Origin: Parcubacteria group bacterium Athens0714_16
GTDB taxonomy: Bacteria; Patescibacteriota; Minisyncoccia; Phycocordibacterales; 21-14-all-36-13
Direction: 5' to 3'
NCBI GenBank assembly: GCA_007376805.1
Contig: VMGX01000001.1
Span: 70,461-134,460, forward strand
Length of the DNA stretch: 64,000 nt
The translations under genes were made by a program, and so were the position numbers. Under the pieces are notes generated by a model. The model searched no databases and had not been told where the DNA came from. It saw only the letters and a list, made by a program, of their open reading frames with translations. Below, piece by piece: positions 1,447 through 60,071 of this stretch. Within the stretch, counting starts at the first letter, position 1; the number at the start of each line of letters is the position of its first letter.

Positions 1447-4083
1447 TTAGATAGTAACAATATTTACAAGTTTCCCTTTGATATATATAGTTTTTTTGAT
1501 TTTTTTGTCCCCCACCCATTTTAGAACCACTTCCGATGAAAGAGCTTTTTCTTTTATTTCATCTTCACCAAGACCGTTATCCACAGTAAACTTATCTCTA
1601 ATTTTGCCATCCACTTGAACAACAACAATAAAGTTTTCGTTTTCTTTTATTTCGTCATATTTAGGCCATTCACTTTTTTGGATAGATTCTTTTTCCCCCA
1701 TCTCTGCCCACAATTCTTCTGTCACGTGTGGTGCAAATGGAGAAAAAATTTTCAAAAACTTTTTATAATTTTCTTTACTAATTCCATTCTTATCATAAAC
1801 GAAGTTTACAAACATCATCATGGAACTTACAGCAGTATTAAATTTTATGTTTTCAATGTCTTCTCCAACTTTTTTTATTGTTTTATTTAAATAATTATTT
1901 ACACCCTCGTTTTCATTATCAACTATTTTTTCCGAAAGCCCACAAACTCTTTCAATAAATCTAACCATTCCAACAACTCCATTTGTGCTCCAACTTGTTT
2001 CCTGGTCGTAGGGGCCAACAAACATTTCATAAAGTCGAAATGCATCTACTCCAAATTTTTTAACAACATCTTCTGGATTAATAACATTACCTCTGGACTT
2101 TGACATTTTTTCTCCACCTTCACCAAGAATCATTCCATGGGAGGTTCTTCTCACGTATGGCTCGTCAGTCGGAACCAAGCCGATATCAAACAAAAATTTA
2201 TGCCAAAAACGAGAGTACAAAAGGTGCAACGTTGTATGTTCCATTCCCCCGTTATACCAATCTACAGGAGTCCAATATTTTAATTTATCCATGCTTGCAA
2301 ACTCTTTGTCATTTTTGTTATCTGCATATCTCAAATAATACCAAGATGAACCAGCCCAGTTTGGCATTGTATCTGTTTCTCTTTTTGCAGGACCTCCGCA
2401 TTTTGGACATTTTACATTTACCCATTCTTTTATATCAGCCAATGGTGATTCTCCGTTATCATTCGGCTCATATTTTTTTACATCAGGAAGTTCAAGTGGA
2501 AGTTTTTCATCAACAACCCATCCTGGATTTAAAATTTCACCTTCATTAAATTTTTGATTTTGGATTTCTGATTTTGAATTTGGAACTTCTTTGGAATTTG
2601 GTGCTTGTAATTTGGAATTTTCCATTGATTTTTTGCACAATTCACAAAAAATCAATGGTATTGGTTCTCCCCAATACCTTTGTCTTGAAAAAATCCAATC
2701 GCGTAATTTATAAGTTGTTTTGAGTTCCCCACCAACAAATTTTGTAATTTCTTTAATCGCTTCTTCACTTTTCATTCCATCAAATTTTCCTGAATTCCTT
2801 AATACACCAAACTCTGTCCATATCTCATTACCAGCAAGAATCTTTTTAGTTTTTTCATCAATCGCAGTTGTAGTATCAAAATTATGAAATCCTGTCGGGA
2901 AAATTCCTCCAACCACAGGACTATTTGGATATGGATTGATTACGTTTATTATTTCAATTTTATCTGCGTTTATCTGCGATTTTTTATCTGCGTTCATCTG
3001 CGATGCGAATGCAAAGTCGCGTTCGTCATGTGCCGGAACCGCCATTATTGCTCCGGTCCCATAACCAGCTAAAACATAATCAGCTATAAAAACTGGAATT
3101 TCTTTTTTGTTTGCAGGATTTATTGCTTTAATCCCTTTTAATTCAATACCTGTTTTTTGTTTGCCTTCAGCCGTTCTGTCTATATCTTTCTTTTTTGCTG
3201 TTTCAGAAATATATTTTTCAACTTCTTTAAAATTTGAGATTTGAGATTTGAGTTTTGAGATTATTTCATGTTCTGGCGCCAAAACTAAATATGTAGCGCC
3301 AAACAAAGTGTCTGGTCGAGTTGTAAATACATTTACTTCATTTTTATTTTCAGATTTGAGATTTGAGATTTTAGATTTTATTTCAAAAGCAATCTCTGCT
3401 CCCTCACTTTTCCCTATCCAATTTCTCTGTTGAATTTTTATTTTTTCCAAAAATTCTGTTTTGTCCAAATCATCATATAATCTTTCAGCATATTTTGTTA
3501 TGGCTAACATCCATTGTTCCTTTTCTCTTTTTTCAACTGGCCCACCACATCTTTCACAAACACCATTAACAACTTCTTCATTAGCTAAACCAATTTTACA
3601 ACTCAAACACCAATTTATTGGCATCTTTTTTTTATAAGCGAGACCGTGTTTAAAAAATTGTAAAAATATCCACTGAGTCCATTTGTAATATTCAGGACTT
3701 GAAGTATTAATTTCACGAGACCAATCAAATGAAAACCCCAGCGATTTTAATTGTTTTCTAAAATTGTCTGTATTTTTTTTAGTTATTATTTTTGGATTTA
3801 CACCTGTTTTAATCGCATAGTTTTCCGTCGGTAAACCAAAAGCGTCCCATCCAATTGGATAAAGCACATTAAATCCTTCGGCTCTTTTTTTTCTGGCAAC
3901 AACGTCCATGGCCGTATAACCTCGTGCATGACCAACATGAAGTCCCTCTCCAGATGCATATGGAAATTCTATTAAACAATAATATTTGGGTTTTTTCTTA
4001 TCTTCCGTTGTTTTGTTTATTTCATCTTTCTCCCAAATCTTTTGCCATTTGCTTTCTATTTTTGAATGATTGTATTTCCCCAT
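1447..4083 (-). CDS. leuS: Leucine--tRNA ligase
   Basis: 878-aa ORF. HVGHARGYTAMDVVARKKRAEGFNVLYPIGWDAFGLP (HIGH region) and KMSKSRGN motifs. Contains low-complexity and NADK-repeat insertions. Confidence 0.95.
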   Translation of the reverse strand: MGKYNHSKIESKWQKIWEKDEINKTTEDKKKPKYYCLIEFPYASGEGLHVGHARGYTAMDVVARKKRAEGFNVLYPIGWDAFGLPTENYAIKTGVNPKIITKKNTDNFRKQLKSLGFSFDWSREINTSSPEYYKWTQWIFLQFFKHGLAYKKKMPINWCLSCKIGLANEEVVNGVCERCGGPVEKREKEQWMLAITKYAERLYDDLDKTEFLEKIKIQQRNWIGKSEGAEIAFEIKSKISNLKSENKNEVNVFTTRPDTLFGATYLVLAPEHEIISKLKSQISNFKEVEKYISETAKKKDIDRTAEGKQKTGIELKGIKAINPANKKEIPVFIADYVLAGYGTGAIMAVPAHDERDFAFASQMNADKKSQINADKIEIINVINPYPNSPVVGGIFPTGFHNFDTTTAIDEKTKKILAGNEIWTEFGVLRNSGKFDGMKSEEAIKEITKFVGGELKTTYKLRDWIFSRQRYWGEPIPLIFCELCKKSMENSKLQAPNSKEVPNSKSEIQNQKFNEGEILNPGWVVDEKLPLELPDVKKYEPNDNGESPLADIKEWVNVKCPKCGGPAKRETDTMPNWAGSSWYYLRYADNKNDKEFASMDKLKYWTPVDWYNGGMEHTTLHLLYSRFWHKFLFDIGLVPTDEPYVRRTSHGMILGEGGEKMSKSRGNVINPEDVVKKFGVDAFRLYEMFVGPYDQETSWSTNGVVGMVRFIERVCGLSEKIVDNENEGVNNYLNKTIKKVGEDIENIKFNTAVSSMMMFVNFVYDKNGISKENYKKFLKIFSPFAPHVTEELWAEMGEKESIQKSEWPKYDEIKENENFIVVVQVDGKIRDKFTVDNGLGEDEIKEKALSSEVVLKWVGDKKIKKTIYIKGKLVNIVTI
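2951..3000. repeat. Tandem ATCTGCG iteron array (4 units, ~11-nt period) inside leuS coding sequence, translated in-frame as SQMNADKKSQINADK
   Basis: ttatctgcgtttatctgcgattttttatctgcgttcatctgcg read directly. The same iteron occurs at 6762-6866, 28384-28478, 44917-44958 and 58606-58612. Confidence 0.7.
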
Positions 4084-4090
4084 TTTATTT

Positions 4091-4145
4091 ACCCTATTAA
4101 ATAATTCGCCCGAAAGTGAATTCCTGTAAACAGGATTTAACGGGG
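4091..4145. repeat. Degenerate MITE/REP-like element with inverted termini ACCCTATTAAAT / ATTTAACGGGGT
   Basis: Inverted termini related to the ACCCTGTTAAAT TIR family. Inner palindrome cctgtaaacagg. Immediately upstream of the leuS start. Confidence 0.45.
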
Positions 4146-4343
4146 TTAATTATACAATAAATTTCTTGTTTAAAAAATGACTAAAAATTAATTGTTGTAA
4201 AAAAAATATTTTTTGATACTATGTGGATTCGGTTTTATGGTTTTTGGATTTAAAACCGAAAGAACGTTAAAAAAGGACATGGTGATGAACAAAAGGGCTA
4301 GTACAAGGAACTAGTATCCTGGCAATCGCCAACATTTTTTGTA

Positions 4344-4366
4344 AGGGGCAATCAAAAATTGCCCCT
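4344..4366. terminator. Hairpin aggggcaat...attgcccct
   Basis: 8-bp GC-rich stem with flanking T/A runs in the leuS upstream intergenic region. Confidence 0.35.
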
Positions 4367-4490
4367 CTTTATTTGGTTTGCAAAATAAAAATATTATGAT
4401 AAATTACAGACGCGACCCTTCTTGGATTATGTGGAAAACGTCCAGGGGTACGGCTCAAATCTCCGAGCTAGAGGAGAGATAAAAACGGCG

Positions 4491-5685: not shown

Positions 5686-5720
5686 AATAATTTTTTTAAA
5701 CTATCTGGAGGTACCTTAAA

Positions 5721-6119
5721 ATGACAAAGACAAATAAGTCAGTTGTTTTTGGATTATTATTAACAGGGCTTTTAACTTTTTTAATACCTGTGCTAAACGG
5801 GTTAACAAAAAAAGCCCCCATAATAACCACACCAAACAATGTGGTAAAAACTCTGTTGAAAGGAACAATCGCAGAAAAGCCAGAGTTTTATATTGGTATT
5901 GGTGGCTATGTGAAAATTAGAGTTTCCTACAACAAGGTGTCTGCAACAGACGACACCAAAATTGATTGTTACATTTTCTCAAACAACCCCGACTATATGC
6001 AAATTGGAGATTCTGTAACTTTTCGAAAAATTGATATTGCTTATAGGTTCACTTTTGAAGAGCATCAAAGTTCATTTGGTTTAATAACAAAAATTAAAGA
6101 CACATCGTATTCCTATTAA
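5721..6119 (+). CDS. Small secreted/membrane-anchored hypothetical protein
   Basis: GGAGG Shine-Dalgarno 8 nt upstream of the ATG. N-terminal hydrophobic signal. Terminator immediately downstream. Confidence 0.5.
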   Translation: MTKTNKSVVFGLLLTGLLTFLIPVLNGLTKKAPIITTPNNVVKTLLKGTIAEKPEFYIGIGGYVKIRVSYNKVSATDDTKIDCYIFSNNPDYMQIGDSVTFRKIDIAYRFTFEEHQSSFGLITKIKDTSYSY

Positions 6120-6123
6120 GCCA

Positions 6124-6168
6124 AAACTCGCGTTGTTTTTTAACAACAACGCGAGTTTTTTATTTCCC
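6124..6168 (+). terminator. Rho-independent terminator (aaaactcgcgttgtt...caacaacgcgagtttttt)
   Basis: 15-bp stem plus T-run directly after the stop of 5721..6119. Confidence 0.65.
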
Positions 6169-6180
6169 AAAAAATAAGGC

Positions 6181-6260
6181 CTGTCCGCCTCTGGCGGAAG
6201 TGGAGCGACTATATTTTTTGAGGATCCAGCTCCACTTTTGTAACTTATTTTTATTAAATT
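6181..6260. repeat. Dispersed repeat copy A (ccgcctctggcgg hairpin plus AGTGGAGC...GCTCCACT hairpin)
   Basis: 35 nt (gcgactatattttttgaggatccagctccactttt) are identical to the reverse complement of 62853-62887. Confidence 0.6.
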
Positions 6261-6381
6261 ATTAAACTCAAAGAAAATTTCTTTATTTTAGAATTACACC
6301 TGAAAACGAAAACAAAAGTGGGGCTGTGGTAAAATAAAAAACCCTATCATTCGCTTTCGCTACTAGATAAGGTTTGACCAC

Positions 6382-6630
6382 TTAAATTATTTTAAAAATT
6401 ATTAACAAGATAAATATAACACCAGCAATCACAAACACATCTCTGATTACACAACTCCAATTCCCGACACGAAACCAAAACTTTTTCTTTTTTCGCAGGC
6501 CGGAATTTTCCGGCATATGGTCAAGAAATCTGTTTTGTTTATAGAGATTCCTTCGCTTTGATTCAGAAACTTGAATCAAAAAATGAGCTCCAAGCGCTAA
6601 AACAAATAATATTAAAACAAAAATTTTCAT
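6382..6630 (-). CDS. Small hypothetical membrane protein
   Basis: 82-aa ORF with two hydrophobic segments. No recognisable motif. Confidence 0.3.
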   Translation of the reverse strand: MKIFVLILFVLALGAHFLIQVSESKRRNLYKQNRFLDHMPENSGLRKKKKFWFRVGNWSCVIRDVFVIAGVIFILLIIFKII

Positions 6631-6761
6631 AAGAACTATCCTCCAAAAAGTTGTTTTTCTATTACAAGATTATCACAGTATTACAATATTGTCAACCTTT
6701 GGTTTTTTGTTTTTAACTATTCAACCATTTAGCTAAATTAGAAAATAGTTTTTTGTTTTAT

Positions 6762-6866
6762 TATCTGCGTTTACCCTGTTAAATAAATTTGCTCAAGCAA
6801 ATTTTCTACTTTGTAGAATTTAACAGGGTTAATCTGCGGTTTTGTTATCTGCATTCATCTGCGGAA
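6762..6866. mobile_element. Miniature inverted-repeat element (57 bp, TIR ACCCTGTTAAAT) flanked on both sides by ATCTGCG iterons
   Basis: ttatctgcgtttACCCTGTTAAATaaatttgctcaagcaaattttctactttgtagaATTTAACAGGGTtaatctgcggttttgttatctgcattcatctgcgg. The TIRs are identical to those bracketing the GIY-YIG ORF at 58628-58915. Confidence 0.6.
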
Positions 6867-6867
6867 T

Positions 6868-7965
6868 TCAAATCTTGAATTCAACGACATCCCCGTCTTT
6901 AACAACATATTCCTTCCCTTCCGTACGAACAAGCCCTTTTGCTTTTGCATTTGCATGTGAACCGGCGTCAACTAAATCTTTCCAATTTATAATTTCTGCA
7001 CGAATAAATTTATCTTTGAAATCAGTGTGAATTGCCATCCCCGCCTCTGGCGCACTTGAATTTCTTTTTATAGTCCACGCCCTCGTCTCATCCTCGCCTG
7101 TCGTCAAAAATGTTATCAAGTCCAAAGCCGAGTACCCTTTTTTAATCAACTCATTTGTTCCGTCATCAAAAACATTTAATTCCTTTCTAAATTCTTTTGC
7201 GTCCTCAACACTCAAGTCCTTCAACTCGTTTTCAATTCCGGCATCAACAATAACAAACTCTGAGCCAGAATCTTTAAAAAACTTCATTAACTTTTCATAT
7301 CTCTCATCTTTTATCTCACACACATCCTTACAACCACTTTTTTTATTTAAAACATAAATTATTTTTTTTGTAGTCAAAAGGTTTAATGTCTTCAAAACTT
7401 CCCTTTCTTCTTTTTCTAAATCAAGTGTTGACGCGAGTTTCCCCTCGTCTAAAACTGCATATACTTTTTTAAAAACCCCTTCTTCAAAAATTGCTTTCTT
7501 ATCTCCCTTCTTAATATCCTTCGCGAGAGTATTAATTCTTTTTGAAACGACTTGAAAATCAGACATTATTAATTCCAAATTTATTATTTCAATATCTTTG
7601 AGCGGGTCTATTTCATTATGAACATGTGTTATATTTTTATCTTCAAATATTCTCACAACCTCCGCAATTGCATCGGTTTCTCTTATGTTCGCCAAAAATT
7701 GATTTCCAAGCCCCTCGCCTTCCGACGCTCCTTTCACAAGCCCCGCAATATCAACAAATTCCACAACCGCTGGAATTTTCTTTTTTGAATTTGAAAATTT
7801 ATTTAATATCTCAACTCGTTCATCGGGCACAGGAACAATCCCCACGGATGGGTCAATTGTGCAGAAAGGATAATTCTCCGCCGGAACGGACTTTTTCGTC
7901 AGCGCATTAAATAGCGTGGACTTCCCCACGTTTGGTAGCCCTACGATTCCTATTGAAATATTCAT
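6868..7965 (-). CDS. ychF: Ribosome-binding ATPase YchF (Obg-family GTPase with TGS domain)
   Basis: N-terminal IGIVGLPNVGKSTLFNALT P-loop, NYPFCTIDP, C-terminal TGS (VRTEGKEYVVKDGDVVEFKI). Confidence 0.9.
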   Translation of the reverse strand: MNISIGIVGLPNVGKSTLFNALTKKSVPAENYPFCTIDPSVGIVPVPDERVEILNKFSNSKKKIPAVVEFVDIAGLVKGASEGEGLGNQFLANIRETDAIAEVVRIFEDKNITHVHNEIDPLKDIEIINLELIMSDFQVVSKRINTLAKDIKKGDKKAIFEEGVFKKVYAVLDEGKLASTLDLEKEEREVLKTLNLLTTKKIIYVLNKKSGCKDVCEIKDERYEKLMKFFKDSGSEFVIVDAGIENELKDLSVEDAKEFRKELNVFDDGTNELIKKGYSALDLITFLTTGEDETRAWTIKRNSSAPEAGMAIHTDFKDKFIRAEIINWKDLVDAGSHANAKAKGLVRTEGKEYVVKDGDVVEFKI

Positions 7966-14672: not shown

Positions 14673-14826
14673 ATTATTCAGTGCACCAATATCTATATTC
14701 TACCACTTTGAAAAAAATTGAATAACATCATCTCCACGTCCCACAAAACCTTTAAAAACTCCCAAAATCTCTATACAACCATTTAATTAAATGATTGAAT
14801 ACAAAAAAACTATTCAATTATTTAAT

Positions 14827-14868
14827 CCTGCCCCGTAGCCCAGCCCCGGGCTGGTGGTACTGGGGTGG
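14827..14868. repeat. GC-rich hairpin element (CCCCGTAGCC-CAGCCCCGGGCTGG-TGGTACTGGGG) inserted in the centre of the 26-nt palindromic repeat
   Basis: Member of a 4-copy family (16237-16272, 18911-18943, 61329-61359) with conserved outer arms CCCGTAGC / GYTACTGGG and covarying inner stems. Confidence 0.55.
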
Positions 14869-15216
14869 ATTAGAGAAAGTATCCGTATCCTCTAAAAACC
14901 CCATGCAACCATTCAATTGAATTAGAGAAAGTATTTCTCAACATTATTTTTGTCTGTTTTTGTATACAACCATTCAATTGAATTAGAGAAAGCATCCGTA
15001 TTCCCCCAAAACTTCTATACAACCATTCAATTGAATTAGAGAAAGCATTTCTCAACATTATTTTTGTCTGTTTTTGTATACAACCATTCAATTGAATTAG
15101 AGAAAGTACCCGTATCCTCTAAAAACCTCCATACAACCATTCAATTGAATTAGAGAAAGCATTTCTCAACATTATTTTTGTCTGTTTTTGTATACAACCA
15201 TTCAATTGAATCTTTA
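14868..15216. repeat. Higher-order tandem repeat: 26-nt unit CAACCATTCAATTGAATTAGAGAAAG alternating with two spacer types (A ~27 nt, B 35 nt), ~3 copies of a ~115-bp super-unit
   Basis: Direct reading. Spacer B (catttctcaacattatttttgtctgtttttgtata) is identical three times. Spacer A variants are near-identical. Overlaps the 3' end of the Fic ORF. Confidence 0.8.
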
Positions 15217-17899: not shown

Positions 17900-18080
17900 T
17901 ATTTATATTTTACCACTTTAAAAATTTTTTAAAAAATTTGAATAACCCTCCAAATTCCACAAAATTCTTTAATTCTTTAATTTCTCTATTCAACCATTTA
18001 ATTAAATGATTGAATACAAAAAAACTATTCAATTATTTCCTACAAAAACGGACGAGTAATTAAATTAGAAAATAGTTTCT
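17900..18080. repeat. Promoter-like conserved module plus stem-loop module (ttaaatgattgaatac aaaaaaa ctattcaattattt)
   Basis: Near-identical to 14690-14826. Contains TGGTAAAAT/TGGTAGAAT extended -10-like sequence on the minus strand ~22 nt upstream of the ATG. Confidence 0.6.
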
Positions 18081-42717: not shown

Positions 42718-42783
42718 CCCGTTAAATGCGGAGCATATTTAACTGGGATGGATGAAAAAGCTCATTCAGAGCTTTTCATTCAT
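42718..42783. repeat. Mini palindromic element CCCGTTAAAT-9nt-ATTTAACTGGG plus terminator module GAAAAGCTCATTCAGAGCTTTTC overlapping the stop of 42780..44138
   Basis: Near-identical copy at 47166-47225. Related terminator hairpin at 44199-44220. Confidence 0.55.
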
Positions 42784-46935: not shown

Positions 46936-47211
46936 ATATTAAAAAGAAAGTTTAAAAACACTTGACTTTCTTTTTAATATATGATATTATTATACCAGAT
47001 ACTTAGATTACAGCACCAGCCAACTTGCGGAGTGAGAAATACTCACACCCACCAAAAAAACGGCTGTGATCTAAAAAAACAAATTCCCACATAAAAGCCT
47101 CGTTGCAAACTTCCAATCATCTGCAACGAGGCTATCTTTTTTTAAACAAAAAAAATATTACTTGTCCCGTTAAATACAAAGTATATTTAATTGGGATGGA
47201 TCAAAAATCTC

Positions 47212-50058: not shown

Positions 50059-51216
50059 TCACTTGGTGGCTCCGAAACTAAGTGACTCTATTTCTTTTAT
50101 TCTACGAACATGTCTTTCTTCTTTAGAAAACGGTGTGTCCAACCAAAGTTTCGCTACCGTTTTTGCTTCTTCTTCTGTAATAAATCTTGCGCCTAGAGAT
50201 AAAATATTTGCATCGTTGTGTTCACGAGATAATTTTACAACTTCAGTATCTCCACCATAATAAACCGCCGTCCTAACATTTTTAAACCTATCCGATATCA
50301 TAGCTTCCCCCTGTCCAGAACCACCCAAAATTATTCCTTTTGAATTGTCTGGATTATTTGAAATTTCTTTCGCAACGAAAGAAACAAAATCTGTGTAGTC
50401 ATCAGCTTCATCGTATTTATAGGCACCCTTATCAATAACATCATAGCCAAGATTTTTAAGAAATTTTACTAATTTACCCTTCAACTCAAACCCGGCATGG
50501 TCAGTTCCTATAAATATTTTTGTTTTTGTTGTTGTTTTTGATTTGGTTTTTATTCGAGTATCACTTTCTCCATTACCGATAAAATTTTTATACCAAGGCA
50601 TTACTTTTATGTGTTTATGAACATATCTACGATATAGCCAAAATAAAACAACGGCAGATATGATTATAAAAGCCAGAGTATCAAAAAAGTATCTAGAACT
50701 TTTTATCGCTCCGCCAAAATAATAACCAACAGCAATAATTGCACTAACCCACACTAACTGCCCAAAAAAGACACCGGTCATAGCTTTTTTATAACTTGCT
50801 CCGAGAGCCCCGCCTGCTATCAAAACAGCTTCAGGAATACCTGGAATCGGAATTAATTTTGTTACAAGAAGTGTTTTTACTATATGTTCCTTAAATAATG
50901 GTGTCCATTCATTTTCTCCCAACTCATCCTCTGTCTTTATCTTTTTAATAACCTTTCTATAGAAACGAAATTTTTCAAGAAAAGAAAACCCCGATTTGGC
51001 CAGAAAAAAAATTATTGAATCTGTTAAAAGTCTCATTGAAACACAGATAGCAAGAACAATGAAAGGATTAAATACCCCCAGTGACGAAAGTATCCCAGCA
51101 AAAAAAGCGATATATGTGGTATCAACAAGAGATACTATTATGAGAATTGGATAACCATAACTAATAAGCCATTCAAAAACATCTTTTCCTAAAATTACTT
51201 CTTGGCCTGTTATCAT
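50059..51216 (-). CDS. Fusion protein: N-terminal DedA/SNARE-associated membrane domain + C-terminal ribose-5-phosphate isomerase B (RpiB/LacAB)
   Basis: Membrane part LIPIPGIPEAVLIAGGALGASYKKAMTGVFFGQL (DedA-like). Soluble part KIFIGTDHAGFELKGKLVKFLKNLGYDVIDKG...ILGGSGQGEAMISDRF...ILSLGARF (RpiB). Confidence 0.7.
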   Translation of the reverse strand: MITGQEVILGKDVFEWLISYGYPILIIVSLVDTTYIAFFAGILSSLGVFNPFIVLAICVSMRLLTDSIIFFLAKSGFSFLEKFRFYRKVIKKIKTEDELGENEWTPLFKEHIVKTLLVTKLIPIPGIPEAVLIAGGALGASYKKAMTGVFFGQLVWVSAIIAVGYYFGGAIKSSRYFFDTLAFIIISAVVLFWLYRRYVHKHIKVMPWYKNFIGNGESDTRIKTKSKTTTKTKIFIGTDHAGFELKGKLVKFLKNLGYDVIDKGAYKYDEADDYTDFVSFVAKEISNNPDNSKGIILGGSGQGEAMISDRFKNVRTAVYYGGDTEVVKLSREHNDANILSLGARFITEEEAKTVAKLWLDTPFSKEERHVRRIKEIESLSFGATK

Positions 51217-51344
51217 TTACCCTGTTAAACAAAATTTGAACATTTTCAAATTTTAATTTTAAATTATTTTTTTAAAAACATAGACTTTTATCTTTCTAAT
51301 TTTTGTAGAGCATACACCACACATATTACAAACCCTATTTAAAA

Positions 51345-58566: not shown

Positions 58567-58626
58567 ATTGAAACGTAGATTACCGCAAATAAAAACGCAA
58601 ATCCACGCAGATTAAATAAAATTAAT

Positions 58627-58881
58627 TCACCCTGTTAAATAAGACTTGAGACGATTTTTAATAAACATTTTTCCCAAGTGTGTTTTCAAGTATTTTTCTC
58701 TATGTGTAGCATCGTCCCGACCTAGACATGCTTCATAGTATATCAATTTTATAGGTATTCTGTTCTTTGTTGATTCTACGAGTCCTTTTTTATGCTTCTC
58801 AAGTCTTAATTTTAAATCTTTTGTATACCCCGTATAAAACTTTTTATCTTTACTCGATTTTAATACATAAACATAATACAT
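58627..58881 (-). CDS. GIY-YIG nuclease family protein (YhbQ/UPF0213-like, 84 aa)
   Basis: YYVYVLKSSKDKKFYTGYTKDLKLRLEKHKKG...IKLIYYEACLGRDDATHREKYLK: GIY...YIG(YTG) beta-hairpin, conserved Arg, Glu. Confidence 0.7.
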   Translation of the reverse strand: MYYVYVLKSSKDKKFYTGYTKDLKLRLEKHKKGLVESTKNRIPIKLIYYEACLGRDDATHREKYLKTHLGKMFIKNRLKSYLTG

Positions 58882-58915
58882 ATCACCTTTGATTAAAAAT
58901 TATTTAACAGGGTAA
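58628..58915. mobile_element. 284-bp element: 12-14-bp terminal inverted repeats ACCCTGTTAAATAA bracketing a GIY-YIG nuclease ORF
   Basis: Left attcACCCTGTTAAATAAgac (58626-58645), right aattATTTAACAGGGTaaag (58899-58918). The ORF fills the interior. CGCAGAT iteron sits immediately outside the left end. Confidence 0.6.
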
Positions 58916-60071
58916 AGTAATAAAGACCCATCGCAATTAAAATAACACCTTCTACTAATGTCGCCCATTTTGTAAATTTAGGTGATGTTAACCATATATC
59001 CATTTTATATATTGCAATAAGAAATACGATTATTTCATCTATTAAATAAAATACAATAAATATACCTATATAAAACAACGTGCCAAAATTTGAGATTCCT
59101 CTTTCAGCTAAAATACCCGCAAAAGAAACAGGGACTGCTGCTGAACAAGGAAATTCAATTAAAGTAACCAAACCAGAAAATACAACCACACCGAGAAGTA
59201 TCTGCAAAACCTTGTTTGTCTCACCAAACATATTTTTAATTTTTGTTGCCGCTGATGAAATAATTTTTGAATCAGACGATTCACAAACCAAGCCCTGTTT
59301 TCTAATTCTTATAAATTCTTTTATAAAATAAATCCCGCCAGCCAATCCAACAAACCCAACCACCAATTCAATTGTTTGGATGTAAGAACTAACTAAAACA
59401 AAGAGACGGTGCCAGAGAATAATCAATAAACCATAAACAAGGGCCGTAACAACAAGATATGCTCCTCCATATAAAATTATTTTCTTTCTCGAACGAAGTT
59501 TGAGAACAAGCCCAAGTATTAAAATAAGTGCACCAAGCGAACACACGTTCACACCGTCAAGTGTCCCAAGAACGACCGAGAGTGCCACAAGAGAATAATT
59601 TTTTACATTAATTTTCCCTAAAATTGGTAAATTTACAGACGAATCCTTAGCTCCGTCTTCGGTTTTAATAACGCCCGTAGTTTTTAATTGATTTTGAATT
59701 GATGTCTCTATATCTTTTCCTATTTTATCTTCTGAATCAAAACCGGCAAAAAAATCTTTCCCTACAAATGTAAGTGGAACAACACCAAAATATTCCCCCT
59801 TTTTAATTTCTTCCAATTTTTTAAACATCGGACTTATATTTGCCTCAATATCAACTGCGTATCTGTTTATTATAAGTCCTTCATATTTCCCTTCTATTTT
59901 GTCTAAAAATGCATTTTCCGCAATACAGTGTGGACATGTTTCACTATAATAGAAATCCAAATTTAATTCTGATTTTATTTCTTGTGCATGAACACGACCA
60001 AAAGAAATAAAAAATAAACCCAGAATTAAGCTGAGGGCAAAAAAAACAAAAAATTTATCCTTGAATTTCAT
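58893..60071 (-). CDS. Thioredoxin-like domain fused to CcdA/DsbD-like transmembrane domain
   Basis: Signal peptide, SETCPHCIAENAF (CxxC thioredoxin motif), membrane domain with VCSLGAL and FPCSAAVP conserved Cys. Confidence 0.6.
   Translation of the reverse strand: MKFKDKFFVFFALSLILGLFFISFGRVHAQEIKSELNLDFYYSETCPHCIAENAFLDKIEGKYEGLIINRYAVDIEANISPMFKKLEEIKKGEYFGVVPLTFVGKDFFAGFDSEDKIGKDIETSIQNQLKTTGVIKTEDGAKDSSVNLPILGKINVKNYSLVALSVVLGTLDGVNVCSLGALILILGLVLKLRSRKKIILYGGAYLVVTALVYGLLIILWHRLFVLVSSYIQTIELVVGFVGLAGGIYFIKEFIRIRKQGLVCESSDSKIISSAATKIKNMFGETNKVLQILLGVVVFSGLVTLIEFPCSAAVPVSFAGILAERGISNFGTLFYIGIFIVFYLIDEIIVFLIAIYKMDIWLTSPKFTKWATLVEGVILIAMGLYYFTLLNNF

Follow-up and report, generated by a model that had tools for sequence, protein, structure and literature searches.

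Can a single small nuclease gene, together with the repeats on either side of it, make up a mobile DNA element? The question is raised by a locus in the 64,000-nucleotide stretch of contig VMGX01000001.1 (Parcubacteria group bacterium Athens0714_16, positions 70,461 to 134,460), which was analysed as a whole and is called the window below. The host is a candidate-phyla-radiation (CPR) bacterium, and at the end of one of its genes, encoding a protein of 392 aa, lies a unit of 291 bp (58626..58916, minus strand) that consists of one 84-codon GIY-YIG gene within inverted repeats of ~17 bases. With a probability of roughly 60% we read this locus as a very small mobile DNA element, in which a single-domain GIY-YIG gene is enclosed by inverted repeats and which is accompanied by gene-less miniature copies. 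The parts of the unit and the adjoining host sequence are the following (ORF, open reading frame).

58626 to 58916, minus strand: complete element, made up of an arm, an 18-nt leader and an 84-codon GIY-YIG ORF whose 3' end is the other arm
58900 to 58916, minus strand: upstream arm, TTTACCCTGTTAAATAA on the minus strand and TTATTTAACAGGGTAAA as inverted repeat
58882 to 58899, minus strand: leader from the upstream arm to the ATG, TTTTTAATCAAAGGTGAT, 18 nt
58627 to 58881, minus strand: GIY-YIG nuclease ORF, 84 aa, with a match to Pfam PF01541
58626 to 58642, minus strand: downstream arm, TTATTTAACAGGGTGAA on the minus strand and TTCACCCTGTTAAATAA as inverted repeat
58612 to 58626, minus strand: displaced original end of the 392-aa host gene, ATT AAT TTT ATT TAA (I-N-F-I-stop), now 3' of the element

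Read in gene orientation, the layout is TTTACCCTGTTAAATAA - 18 nt - ATG ... TCT TAT TTA ACA GGG TGA A, in which the downstream arm is formed by the last five codons of the ORF with the stop (TAT TTA ACA GGG TGA, encoding Y-L-T-G-stop) and the preceding 392-aa membrane thioredoxin-like gene takes its new final codons, (F)TLLNN(F*), from the upstream arm. A preliminary description, made from the letters of the window, had placed the ORF exactly between two inverted repeats; the repeats are indeed there, with the core 14-mer ACCCTGTTAAATAA exact at 58629-58642 (+) and 58900-58913 (-), although the first of them had been given one position off (58630) and the ORF is not confined between them, as it overlaps the downstream arm. 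In a repeat search the inverted pair extends to 22 nt with 91% complementarity (58621-58642 / 58900-58921). The suspected enrichment of the motif is borne out as well: allowing up to two mismatches, the 14-mer occurs at six sites in the window against 1.33 expected, a count reached by none of 100 shuffles, and a metagenome scan for CCCTGTTAAAT-N20-50-ATTTAACAGGG found gene-less copies with exact arms, called solos here, on at least 120 contigs. Rfam, applied to the window at gathering score, recognised two tRNAs only and nothing at the element.

That the unit moves can be seen at its insertion point. In three relatives (L085, L086 and L088) the homologue of the 392-aa gene adjoins a chagasin-like inhibitor gene without a GIY-YIG gene in between, and the same inhibitor gene follows the element in the window. 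The 392-aa protein ends in ..GLYYFTLLNNF in the window but in ..GLYYIINIL, ..GLYYIISFL and ..GLYYIINFI in homologues that are 91%, 85% and 72% identical to it, respectively, and the relic I-N-F-I-stop codons found 3' of the element match the empty site of L088 (6142-6158) and the C-terminus of P0123. Empty and filled sites, which the preliminary description could only anticipate, are now at hand from element-less orthologous positions in three relatives, and read as follows.

Empty site, L088: ..GGTCTTTATTAT ATT ATTAATTTTATTTAA TCTGCGT..
Filled site, window: ..GGTCTTTATTAC [TTTACCCTG...CAGGGTGA] ATTAATTTTATTTAA TCTGCGT..

Neither a hairpin nor anything arm-like is present at the empty orthologous sites of L085, L086 and L088, and therefore the arms came with the gene. 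This bears directly on the idea that a free-standing homing endonuclease cuts palindromes that were already there and that repair then copies its gene into their loops, the solos being empty targets. Weak matches to models of GIY-YIG homing endonucleases from group I introns and phages would fit such a history, as would a full element at the centre of an outer palindrome (L055) and a 73-nt left flank common to a full copy and a solo (L056), which resembles co-conversion. GIY-YIG homing enzymes such as I-TevI and the Seg proteins share the catalytic fold and are likewise selfish, but they carry a separate DNA-binding domain and spread by homology-based copying into the cleaved allele, whereas the protein here is a bare domain. 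With no second domain, a TIGR01453 score of 19 bits against a cut-off of 56 bits and no arm-like target, assignment to the homing endonucleases was rejected, and since the orthologous sites held no repeat to be cut, we consider this account very improbable.

Returning to the mobile-element reading, copies of the unit also occupy unrelated positions. By blastn, 298 bp at the window element are 93.6% and 88% identical to two copies (L005 and L006, respectively) from another Paceibacterota genome, with no detectable similarity between its flanks and those of L005/L006, and in L005 the element is placed before gatC. The locus is thus a discrete unit with defined ends that is found at different genomic sites and is absent from orthologous ones, as a transposable element should be. 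The targets seen are AT-rich (TTATTATATT^ATTAAT, TTATTT^AAC); the junctions of two nested insertions and one filled/empty pair allow a duplication of 0-3 nt (TTT in L060), with ~4 nt differing at the window junction. What emerges is a discrete, mobile and conserved gene-plus-arms unit; we found no direct evidence earlier than this for a bare GIY-YIG gene and its repeats acting as a transposable unit.

The same observations have to be weighed against a host nuclease of the Ssn type (the site-specific nucleases compared below) that has been domesticated and cuts single-stranded DNA (ssDNA) at dispersed repeats, for instance limiting or shaping the recombination of transformed DNA. The repeats would then be recognition sites, and the insertion would be left over from an earlier mobile state or from recombination between repeats. 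Neisseria SsnA does modulate transformation via its repeats, and its authors proposed domestication (Chenal et al. 2025, PMC11893778); purifying selection on the protein, its 70-98% identity across phyla and the orthologous positions kept between species, e.g., L043/L078 and, after rpoC, L053/L056, point the same way. However, closely related genomes have near-identical copies at sites unrelated to one another, and relatives with 72-91% protein identity have the site empty; recent movement is therefore indicated. Copies that are frameshifted (L064), fragmentary (L041) or truncated in their ORF (L082) also speak against a maintained host function, and the in-frame solos in ligA, gatA and rluD look parasitic rather than useful. 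We regard domestication as unlikely to be the full account, while it is not exclusive of the mobile-element reading, being compatible with past mobility.

Gene and arms are linked far beyond this genome. When one genome per species was scanned, 586 loci were confirmed; 80 of them were fetched, from records labelled Patescibacteria (many classes), Bacteroidales, Flavobacteriales, Desulfobacterales, Cloacimonadota, Aminicenantes and Izemoplasmatales and from a Nanoarchaeota bin; some labels of metagenome-assembled genomes may be unreliable, and the Desulfobacterales loci include those of the cultured Desulfosarcina cetonica and strain NaphS2. Of 82 full-length copies (~80 genomes, many phyla), 81 have the arm (A)TT[C/T/A]ACCC[N]GT[T/C/G]AAATAA 24-66 nt ahead of the start codon, and in the same 81 the ORF ends in the reverse complement of the arm, so that the flanking noticed in the window holds in related genomes, where the two arms covary. 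Across an alignment of 75 sequences, 92.2% of the cells of the 17-pair stem are paired, a value reached by none of 500 shuffles. Columns 14/299 of this alignment read UA in 56, CG in 12 and GC in five sequences, and further compensatory double changes turn ACCC into ATCC together with GGGT into GGAT, and AAATAA into AAGTAA together with TTATTT into TTACTT. Where the coding arm varies, the amino acid is kept or replaced conservatively (Leu TTA/TTG/CTA, Phe TTC, Gly GGG/GGA, Tyr TAT/TAC), and the median arm-to-arm length is 286 nt. The leader adapts to the host, with TTTTAAAT followed by variable bases in CPR genomes, AATTCAATAT in Bacteroidales records and AATAGCTTGAGG with a Shine-Dalgarno-like GCTTGAGG in Desulfobacterales. 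Packing into the host genes is tight: the upstream gene ends within the left arm in at least 24 of the 82 loci, and the next gene often begins 3-17 nt past codon 84, e.g., GGGTAAATG.

Within the 1.6 Mb of fetched DNA, pairs of arms enclose the GIY-YIG gene in 71 cases, a solo of up to 120 nt in 144 and a slightly longer solo in two (131 and 147 nt). No gene except GIY-YIG was found within matching arm pairs, and other cargo was rejected on this ground. These counts are relevant to the suggestion that the repeats owe their movement to another enzyme, be it an unlinked transposase or the replication and repair machinery of the host working on palindromes, with the GIY-YIG gene a passenger in one subfamily. 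Most bacterial MITEs (miniature inverted-repeat transposable elements) are moved in trans, no strand-joining activity is known for GIY-YIG enzymes, and the arms are the only part common to solos and full element, all of which would suit a passenger. A passenger would, however, not be expected as the sole gene between the arms throughout this DNA, with one arm inside its coding sequence and both covarying with the gene across phyla; moreover, no transposase with these ends was seen, and a distant GIY-YIG subfamily has its own matching arms. We judge a passenger role to be quite improbable. The distant case is a second GIY-YIG gene in L005 (11426-11729), 38% identical and flanked on both sides by a perfect inverted repeat of its own (at least 17 nt), CCAGCACTTAATTTTGT / ACAAAATTAAGTGCTGG; as these arms differ, the gene-inside-a-stem design recurs with other sequences.

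The window further holds four miniature copies and a half copy. The preliminary description had already picked out all five, and each of them stood up: the sequences at 6773-6829 and 4091-4145 are complete miniature copies, those at 42718-42747 and 47166-47195 short hairpins of a related subfamily, and the half-site at 51219-51230 a half copy that abuts the rpiB start codon. Their full extents are given here, with the strand where one is assigned.

6770 to 6832: complete solo, arms TTTACCCTGTTAAATAA / AATTTAACAGGGTTAA closing two inner hairpins
4088 to 4149: solo whose arms are degenerate, with two inner hairpins; it separates the promoter-like TATTGTATAAT box of leuS from the ATG of this gene (4083, minus)
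42718 to 42747: short hairpin of the CCCGTTAAAT subfamily, CCCGTTAAAT-N9-ATTTAACTGGG
47166 to 47196: second short hairpin of the CCCGTTAAAT subfamily, with ~45 nt in common with the 42718 copy and a weak fold (z -1.67)
51216 to 51232, minus strand: half copy resembling the downstream arm, TTGTTTAACAGGGTAAA; its final A also begins the ATG of the rpiB-fusion gene

Solos measure 50-85 bp, and in them the same arms close two variable, adjacent inner hairpins. Folded as single-stranded DNA, positions 6768-6834 form a stem closing two hairpins at -17.7 kcal/mol (z = -7.75), and solos in general fold as three-way junctions under DNA parameters, with z down to this value. At least 13 solos near the fetched GIY-YIG loci share the architecture of the window solos 6770-6832 and 4088-4149, and permissive Rfam scans of the solos in the window and in L005 returned matches at chance level only. 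About 85% of the 122 listed metagenome solos have two perfect inner hairpins, mostly with 3-nt loops and with highly variable sequences, and 19 of the 122 lie in-frame in long ORFs, nearly always in the frame xHPVKS...FNRV(K/N). Essential genes are among the targets: solos in L005 interrupt gatA and, just ahead of the KxDG motif, ligA, where the insertion amounts to ~19 residues relative to E. coli LigA, and a solo in L016 interrupts a rluD-like gene. Presence varies between relatives, as the leuS 5' region of L210/L211 has the TATTGTATAAT box followed by the ATG 11 nt on without an insert, and no solo lies downstream of ychF in L210. The GGGTAAATG junction of the rpiB half copy also follows many full elements. 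Members of the family are also nested, with a solo within the right arm of a full element (L060) and, in L055, a full element of the CCCGTTAAAT subfamily, its arms enclosing a GIY-YIG gene, at the centre of the outer palindrome mentioned above.

Being short, non-coding, multicopy and polymorphic in their insertion, and having the terminal repeats of a coding partner, the solos resemble bacterial MITEs (Correia, ERIC, RUP) and Rickettsia palindromic elements (RPEs), which are likewise short palindromic insertions that keep the frame in essential genes. As with RPEs, a conserved peptide is added, here xHPVKS...FNRV. The solos are smaller than RPEs (50-85 bp vs 100-150 bp), and whereas RPEs come without a linked enzyme gene and Correia elements without a known transposase, here a protein-coding partner has identical ends.

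The 84-aa protein matches the Pfam GIY-YIG domain PF01541 over residues 1-71 (E=8.2e-15) and contains no further Pfam domain, in keeping with its first description as a minimal GIY-YIG protein. Residues invariant across 20 relatives include Y5, Y16, G18, R26, H30, E50, E62 and N76, and the catalytic-domain match, the two Tyr motifs, the Arg and the metal-binding Glu place the protein in the GIY-YIG nuclease superfamily. The nearest solved structures by profile match are the UPF0213 proteins 1zg2 (E=3.5e-7) and 1ywl; a structure prediction from only 20 near-identical sequences gave a mean pLDDT (predicted local distance difference test) of 61.7, too poor for fold comparison. UPF0213 proteins have been assigned to the Slx1 cluster as a minimal stand-alone GIY-YIG domain, and a GIY-YIG domain recently inserted in an HsdR gene has been described in the same study (Dunin-Horkawicz et al. 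2006, PMC1564403). Slx1/UPF0213 proteins (YhbQ among them) share the catalytic fold, but UPF0213 is not known as repeat-flanked. A protein search returned 5,812 relatives at 90% clustering, and the best 120 of the 5,812 are 66-96% identical; relatives have a length of 84-87 aa. Pairwise divergence at codon positions 1 / 2 / 3 is 0.225 / 0.129 / 0.475, showing purifying selection on the protein, and the third-position value is 0.21 in the last six codons, which form the arm, vs 0.50 in the rest of the ORF. Carriage by phages or plasmids was rejected: tblastn against 50,697 phage records and 72,556 plasmids gave no close relative, the best identities being ~40%. One match at 59% identity came from IMG/VR.

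The closest precedent is the Ssn family, whose SsnA (94 aa; Y6, Y17, E64) and Neisseria and Wolbachia homologues are site-specific nucleases that cut ssDNA only, beside the hairpin repeat NTS/SRM (Chenal et al. 2025, PMC11893778). In 42% of Ssn homologues the gene has a repeat on both sides, and repeat-rich genomes usually carry an Ssn gene (PMC11893778). The earlier statement that small GIY-YIG proteins had not been described with such repeats is consequently outdated, while the analogy it drew to RAYT (REP-associated tyrosine transposase) genes and their REP (repetitive extragenic palindromic) sequences has an independent parallel, as the Ssn authors noted an IS-like (insertion sequence) layout and the same RAYT/REP similarity and suggested domestication (Chenal et al. 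2025, PMC11893778). The likeness to Ssn (cd10448) covers the single GIY-YIG domain of ~85-95 residues (84 aa here, within the family limit of <150 aa), the catalytic spacing (Y5/Y16/E62 here vs Y6/Y17/E64 in SsnA, compared with the published text only), the hairpin-forming repeat on each side of the gene that is also dispersed in the genome, and the first inner hairpin of many solos, CCCGCGAAGCGGG, which resembles the NTS core TCCCGCGMAVGCGGGA. In contrast, the flanks here together make one long-range stem, with one half in coding sequence, whereas Ssn genes have two self-contained hairpins, and the flank motif is TTYACCCNGTNAAATAA in inverted orientation, not SRM. Presence/absence polymorphism and in-frame miniatures, seen here, are unreported for Ssn, and Ssn activity has been measured biochemically, whereas the present protein is known from its sequence. 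The concept is thus no longer unprecedented, while the repeat and the architecture differ.

The published SRM pattern (HGTCWY..YYVSBRH..WNVSBRG..RNCYNB) had no match in the window and eight in the 1.6 Mb of fetched sequence, none coinciding with the arms, and was rejected as their description. One SRM match (L052) starts ~20 nt past a family gene, and no copy is SRM-flanked on both sides. As a separate observation, canonical SRM/NTS hairpins (e.g., TGTCATTCCCGCGAAGGCGGGAATC) occur in the CPR contigs L026 (3968), L191 (972) and L009 (7247), with no Ssn-like gene within 900 nt.

Two other systems invite comparison. RAYTs and their REP/BIME (bacterial interspersed mosaic element) repeats are also a single gene flanked by palindromic repeats dispersed genome-wide, with a presumed action on folded ssDNA; however, a RAYT is a Y1 HUH tyrosine transposase with a covalent intermediate, usually single-copy and vertically inherited, whereas the present unit encodes a GIY-YIG hydrolase and is inserted at different sites. 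No HUH gene was seen next to any copy, which sets the locus apart from RAYTs as defined by a Y1 HUH (TnpA-REP) enzyme. IS200/IS605 elements resemble it in being very small and in having strand-specific mismatched or extrahelical hairpin bases; they recognise hairpins, as the present nuclease may do, and lack a terminal duplication, where none could be defined here, but they have subterminal hairpins rather than terminal inverted repeats, encode TnpA (HUH) and no GIY-YIG protein, and are at least 600-700 bp long. Beyond the Ssn paper (PMC11893778) as closest precedent, no literature description of this element was found, and a 2024 review of prokaryotic MITEs does not mention GIY-YIG.

How could such a unit move? 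In single-stranded DNA the two arms would anneal to a stem that is interrupted close to its foot by a fixed mismatch of one base. The nuclease encoded by the element may recognise this folded stem and nick beside it, as Ssn nucleases do in vitro at their own hairpin repeats, and the nick could then start movement or copying of the full element and, in trans, of the miniature copies. We infer from the arrangement of gene and arms that the movement is probably nuclease-driven; the three-way junctions predicted for solos and a base pair that is non-Watson-Crick in full elements and solos alike are consistent with action on a folded strand.

This pair lies at position -1, the base just outside ACCC (window 58628 and 58914), where the arms are almost never complementary. 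Among full elements the combinations are C·A 35, T·G 23, A·A 9, T·A (Watson-Crick) 8, T·T 4 and C·G (Watson-Crick) 0, and the two positions outside it (TT/AA) are paired in nearly all copies. Solos having A at position 1 in both arms show C in one arm and T in the other in 43 of 77 cases. Which arm carries C and which T flips between close relatives and has no tie to GC skew, and an explanation by replication strand was rejected, as C/T (26/32) and T/C (21/23) are both mostly on the G-rich strand. By analogy with the mismatched or extrahelical bases used by IS608 TnpA and by integron integrases, we read the mismatch as a possible recognition feature of the folded strand.

A conserved stem around a gene might equally belong to the transcript, where pairing of the 5' leader with the 3' end would control translation, stability or RNase III processing and the solos would be terminators or attenuators. 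Mismatches compatible with G-U pairs in the 14-bp core stem (positions 1-14) do favour the sense strand (32 vs 15 antisense), and elements share the orientation of neighbouring genes, often directly adjoining the next start codon. Position -1, however, prefers antisense-type mismatches (35 vs 23), and the arm sequence itself, beyond its pairing, is nearly invariant across phyla. The inner hairpins are perfect palindromes with 3-nt loops, and therefore both strands fold alike; no Rfam family matches, RNA pairing leaves the presence/absence polymorphism unexplained, and Ssn relatives do not bind RNA (PMC11893778). Altogether, an RNA role is hardly probable.

Several points weigh against the mobile-element reading. 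No target-site duplication is definable from the one filled/empty pair or the two nested insertions. To our knowledge GIY-YIG nucleases hydrolyse DNA and do not join it, and therefore the integration step is without a known enzyme here. The full element is low in copy number, with one in the 64-kb window and one to two per locus set, and the 775 kb around 120 listed metagenome solos contained no close family member, a negative that is uninformative given the genome sizes. The 70-98% protein identity across phyla with tight operon packing, and the co-orientation with the G-rich strand in 47 of 55 cases, would also fit a gene of benefit to its host. A more far-reaching version, in which the unit is a fully autonomous 291-bp transposon, the smallest known, with the 84-residue GIY-YIG ssDNA nuclease alone initiating movement, is possible yet doubtful in our view. 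If true, GIY-YIG would join the DDE, HUH, serine and tyrosine enzymes as a new class of prokaryotic transposase, and the unit would be the source of a large population, previously unrecognised, of in-frame palindromic insertions in CPR and other bacteria.

Correia elements, RPEs and numerous REP-like families are miniature repeats without a known mobilising enzyme; here a bare GIY-YIG nuclease gene is physically tied to its repeats, and true movement of gene and repeats as one unit is shown by filled and empty sites. CPR genomes turn out to contain a population of in-frame insertions that resemble RPEs: gene-less copies reshape essential proteins (LigA, GatA, RluD) in ultra-small genomes otherwise thought transposon-poor. 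With 291 bp and one 84-residue protein, the element offers a compact system for how a hydrolytic nuclease can drive DNA mobility, and its relatives a natural set of paired enzyme/hairpin specificities with possible use in ssDNA cutting.

Further observations concern the surroundings of the copies. The motif ATCTGCG / CGCAGAT repeats around the 6770-6832 solo (window 6762-6864) and directly 3' of the GIY-YIG element (58570-58612); because it is present at the empty site too (L088 6150-6200), it is host intergenic sequence outside the element. In L056, 73 nt comprising the rpoC 3' end, the spacer and the left arm are duplicated at 97% (5901-5973 and 7158-7230), before a solo 1.3 kb downstream, and the flank could have been copied along with the arm by recombination or co-conversion between copies. 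The distance from ychF to the DUF5671 gene is ~1.18 kb in the window (5686-6868) vs 53 nt in L210; besides the solo, the additional sequence contains small ORFs and several strong hairpins, and GGGGCAATTTTTGATTGCCCC-like terminators lie elsewhere, in 4270-4400. LeuRS of the window (1447-4083) has 878 aa vs 804 aa in the nearest relative. An in-frame solo as the cause of this length was rejected, since the extra segments are of another kind: the lineage-specific inserts, which include ~36 residues (MENSKLQAPNSKEVPNSKSEIQNQKFNEGEILNPGW, common to P0242) and a SQMNADKKSQINADK segment, differ from the HPVKS type of the solos. At ~2250-2380 of L212, and in L213, a different palindromic insert, CCCCAAAAGAAAC...GTTTCTTACGGGG, parts the old leuS start MRRYDHSKIESKW from the present one and is another miniature element family in these genomes. 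Finally, a 27-nt unit, TTTTTGTATACAACCATTCAATTGAAT, recurs at 114-nt spacing in the window at 14781-15211, with an inverted partner at 14781-14807 and again near 17981-18022.

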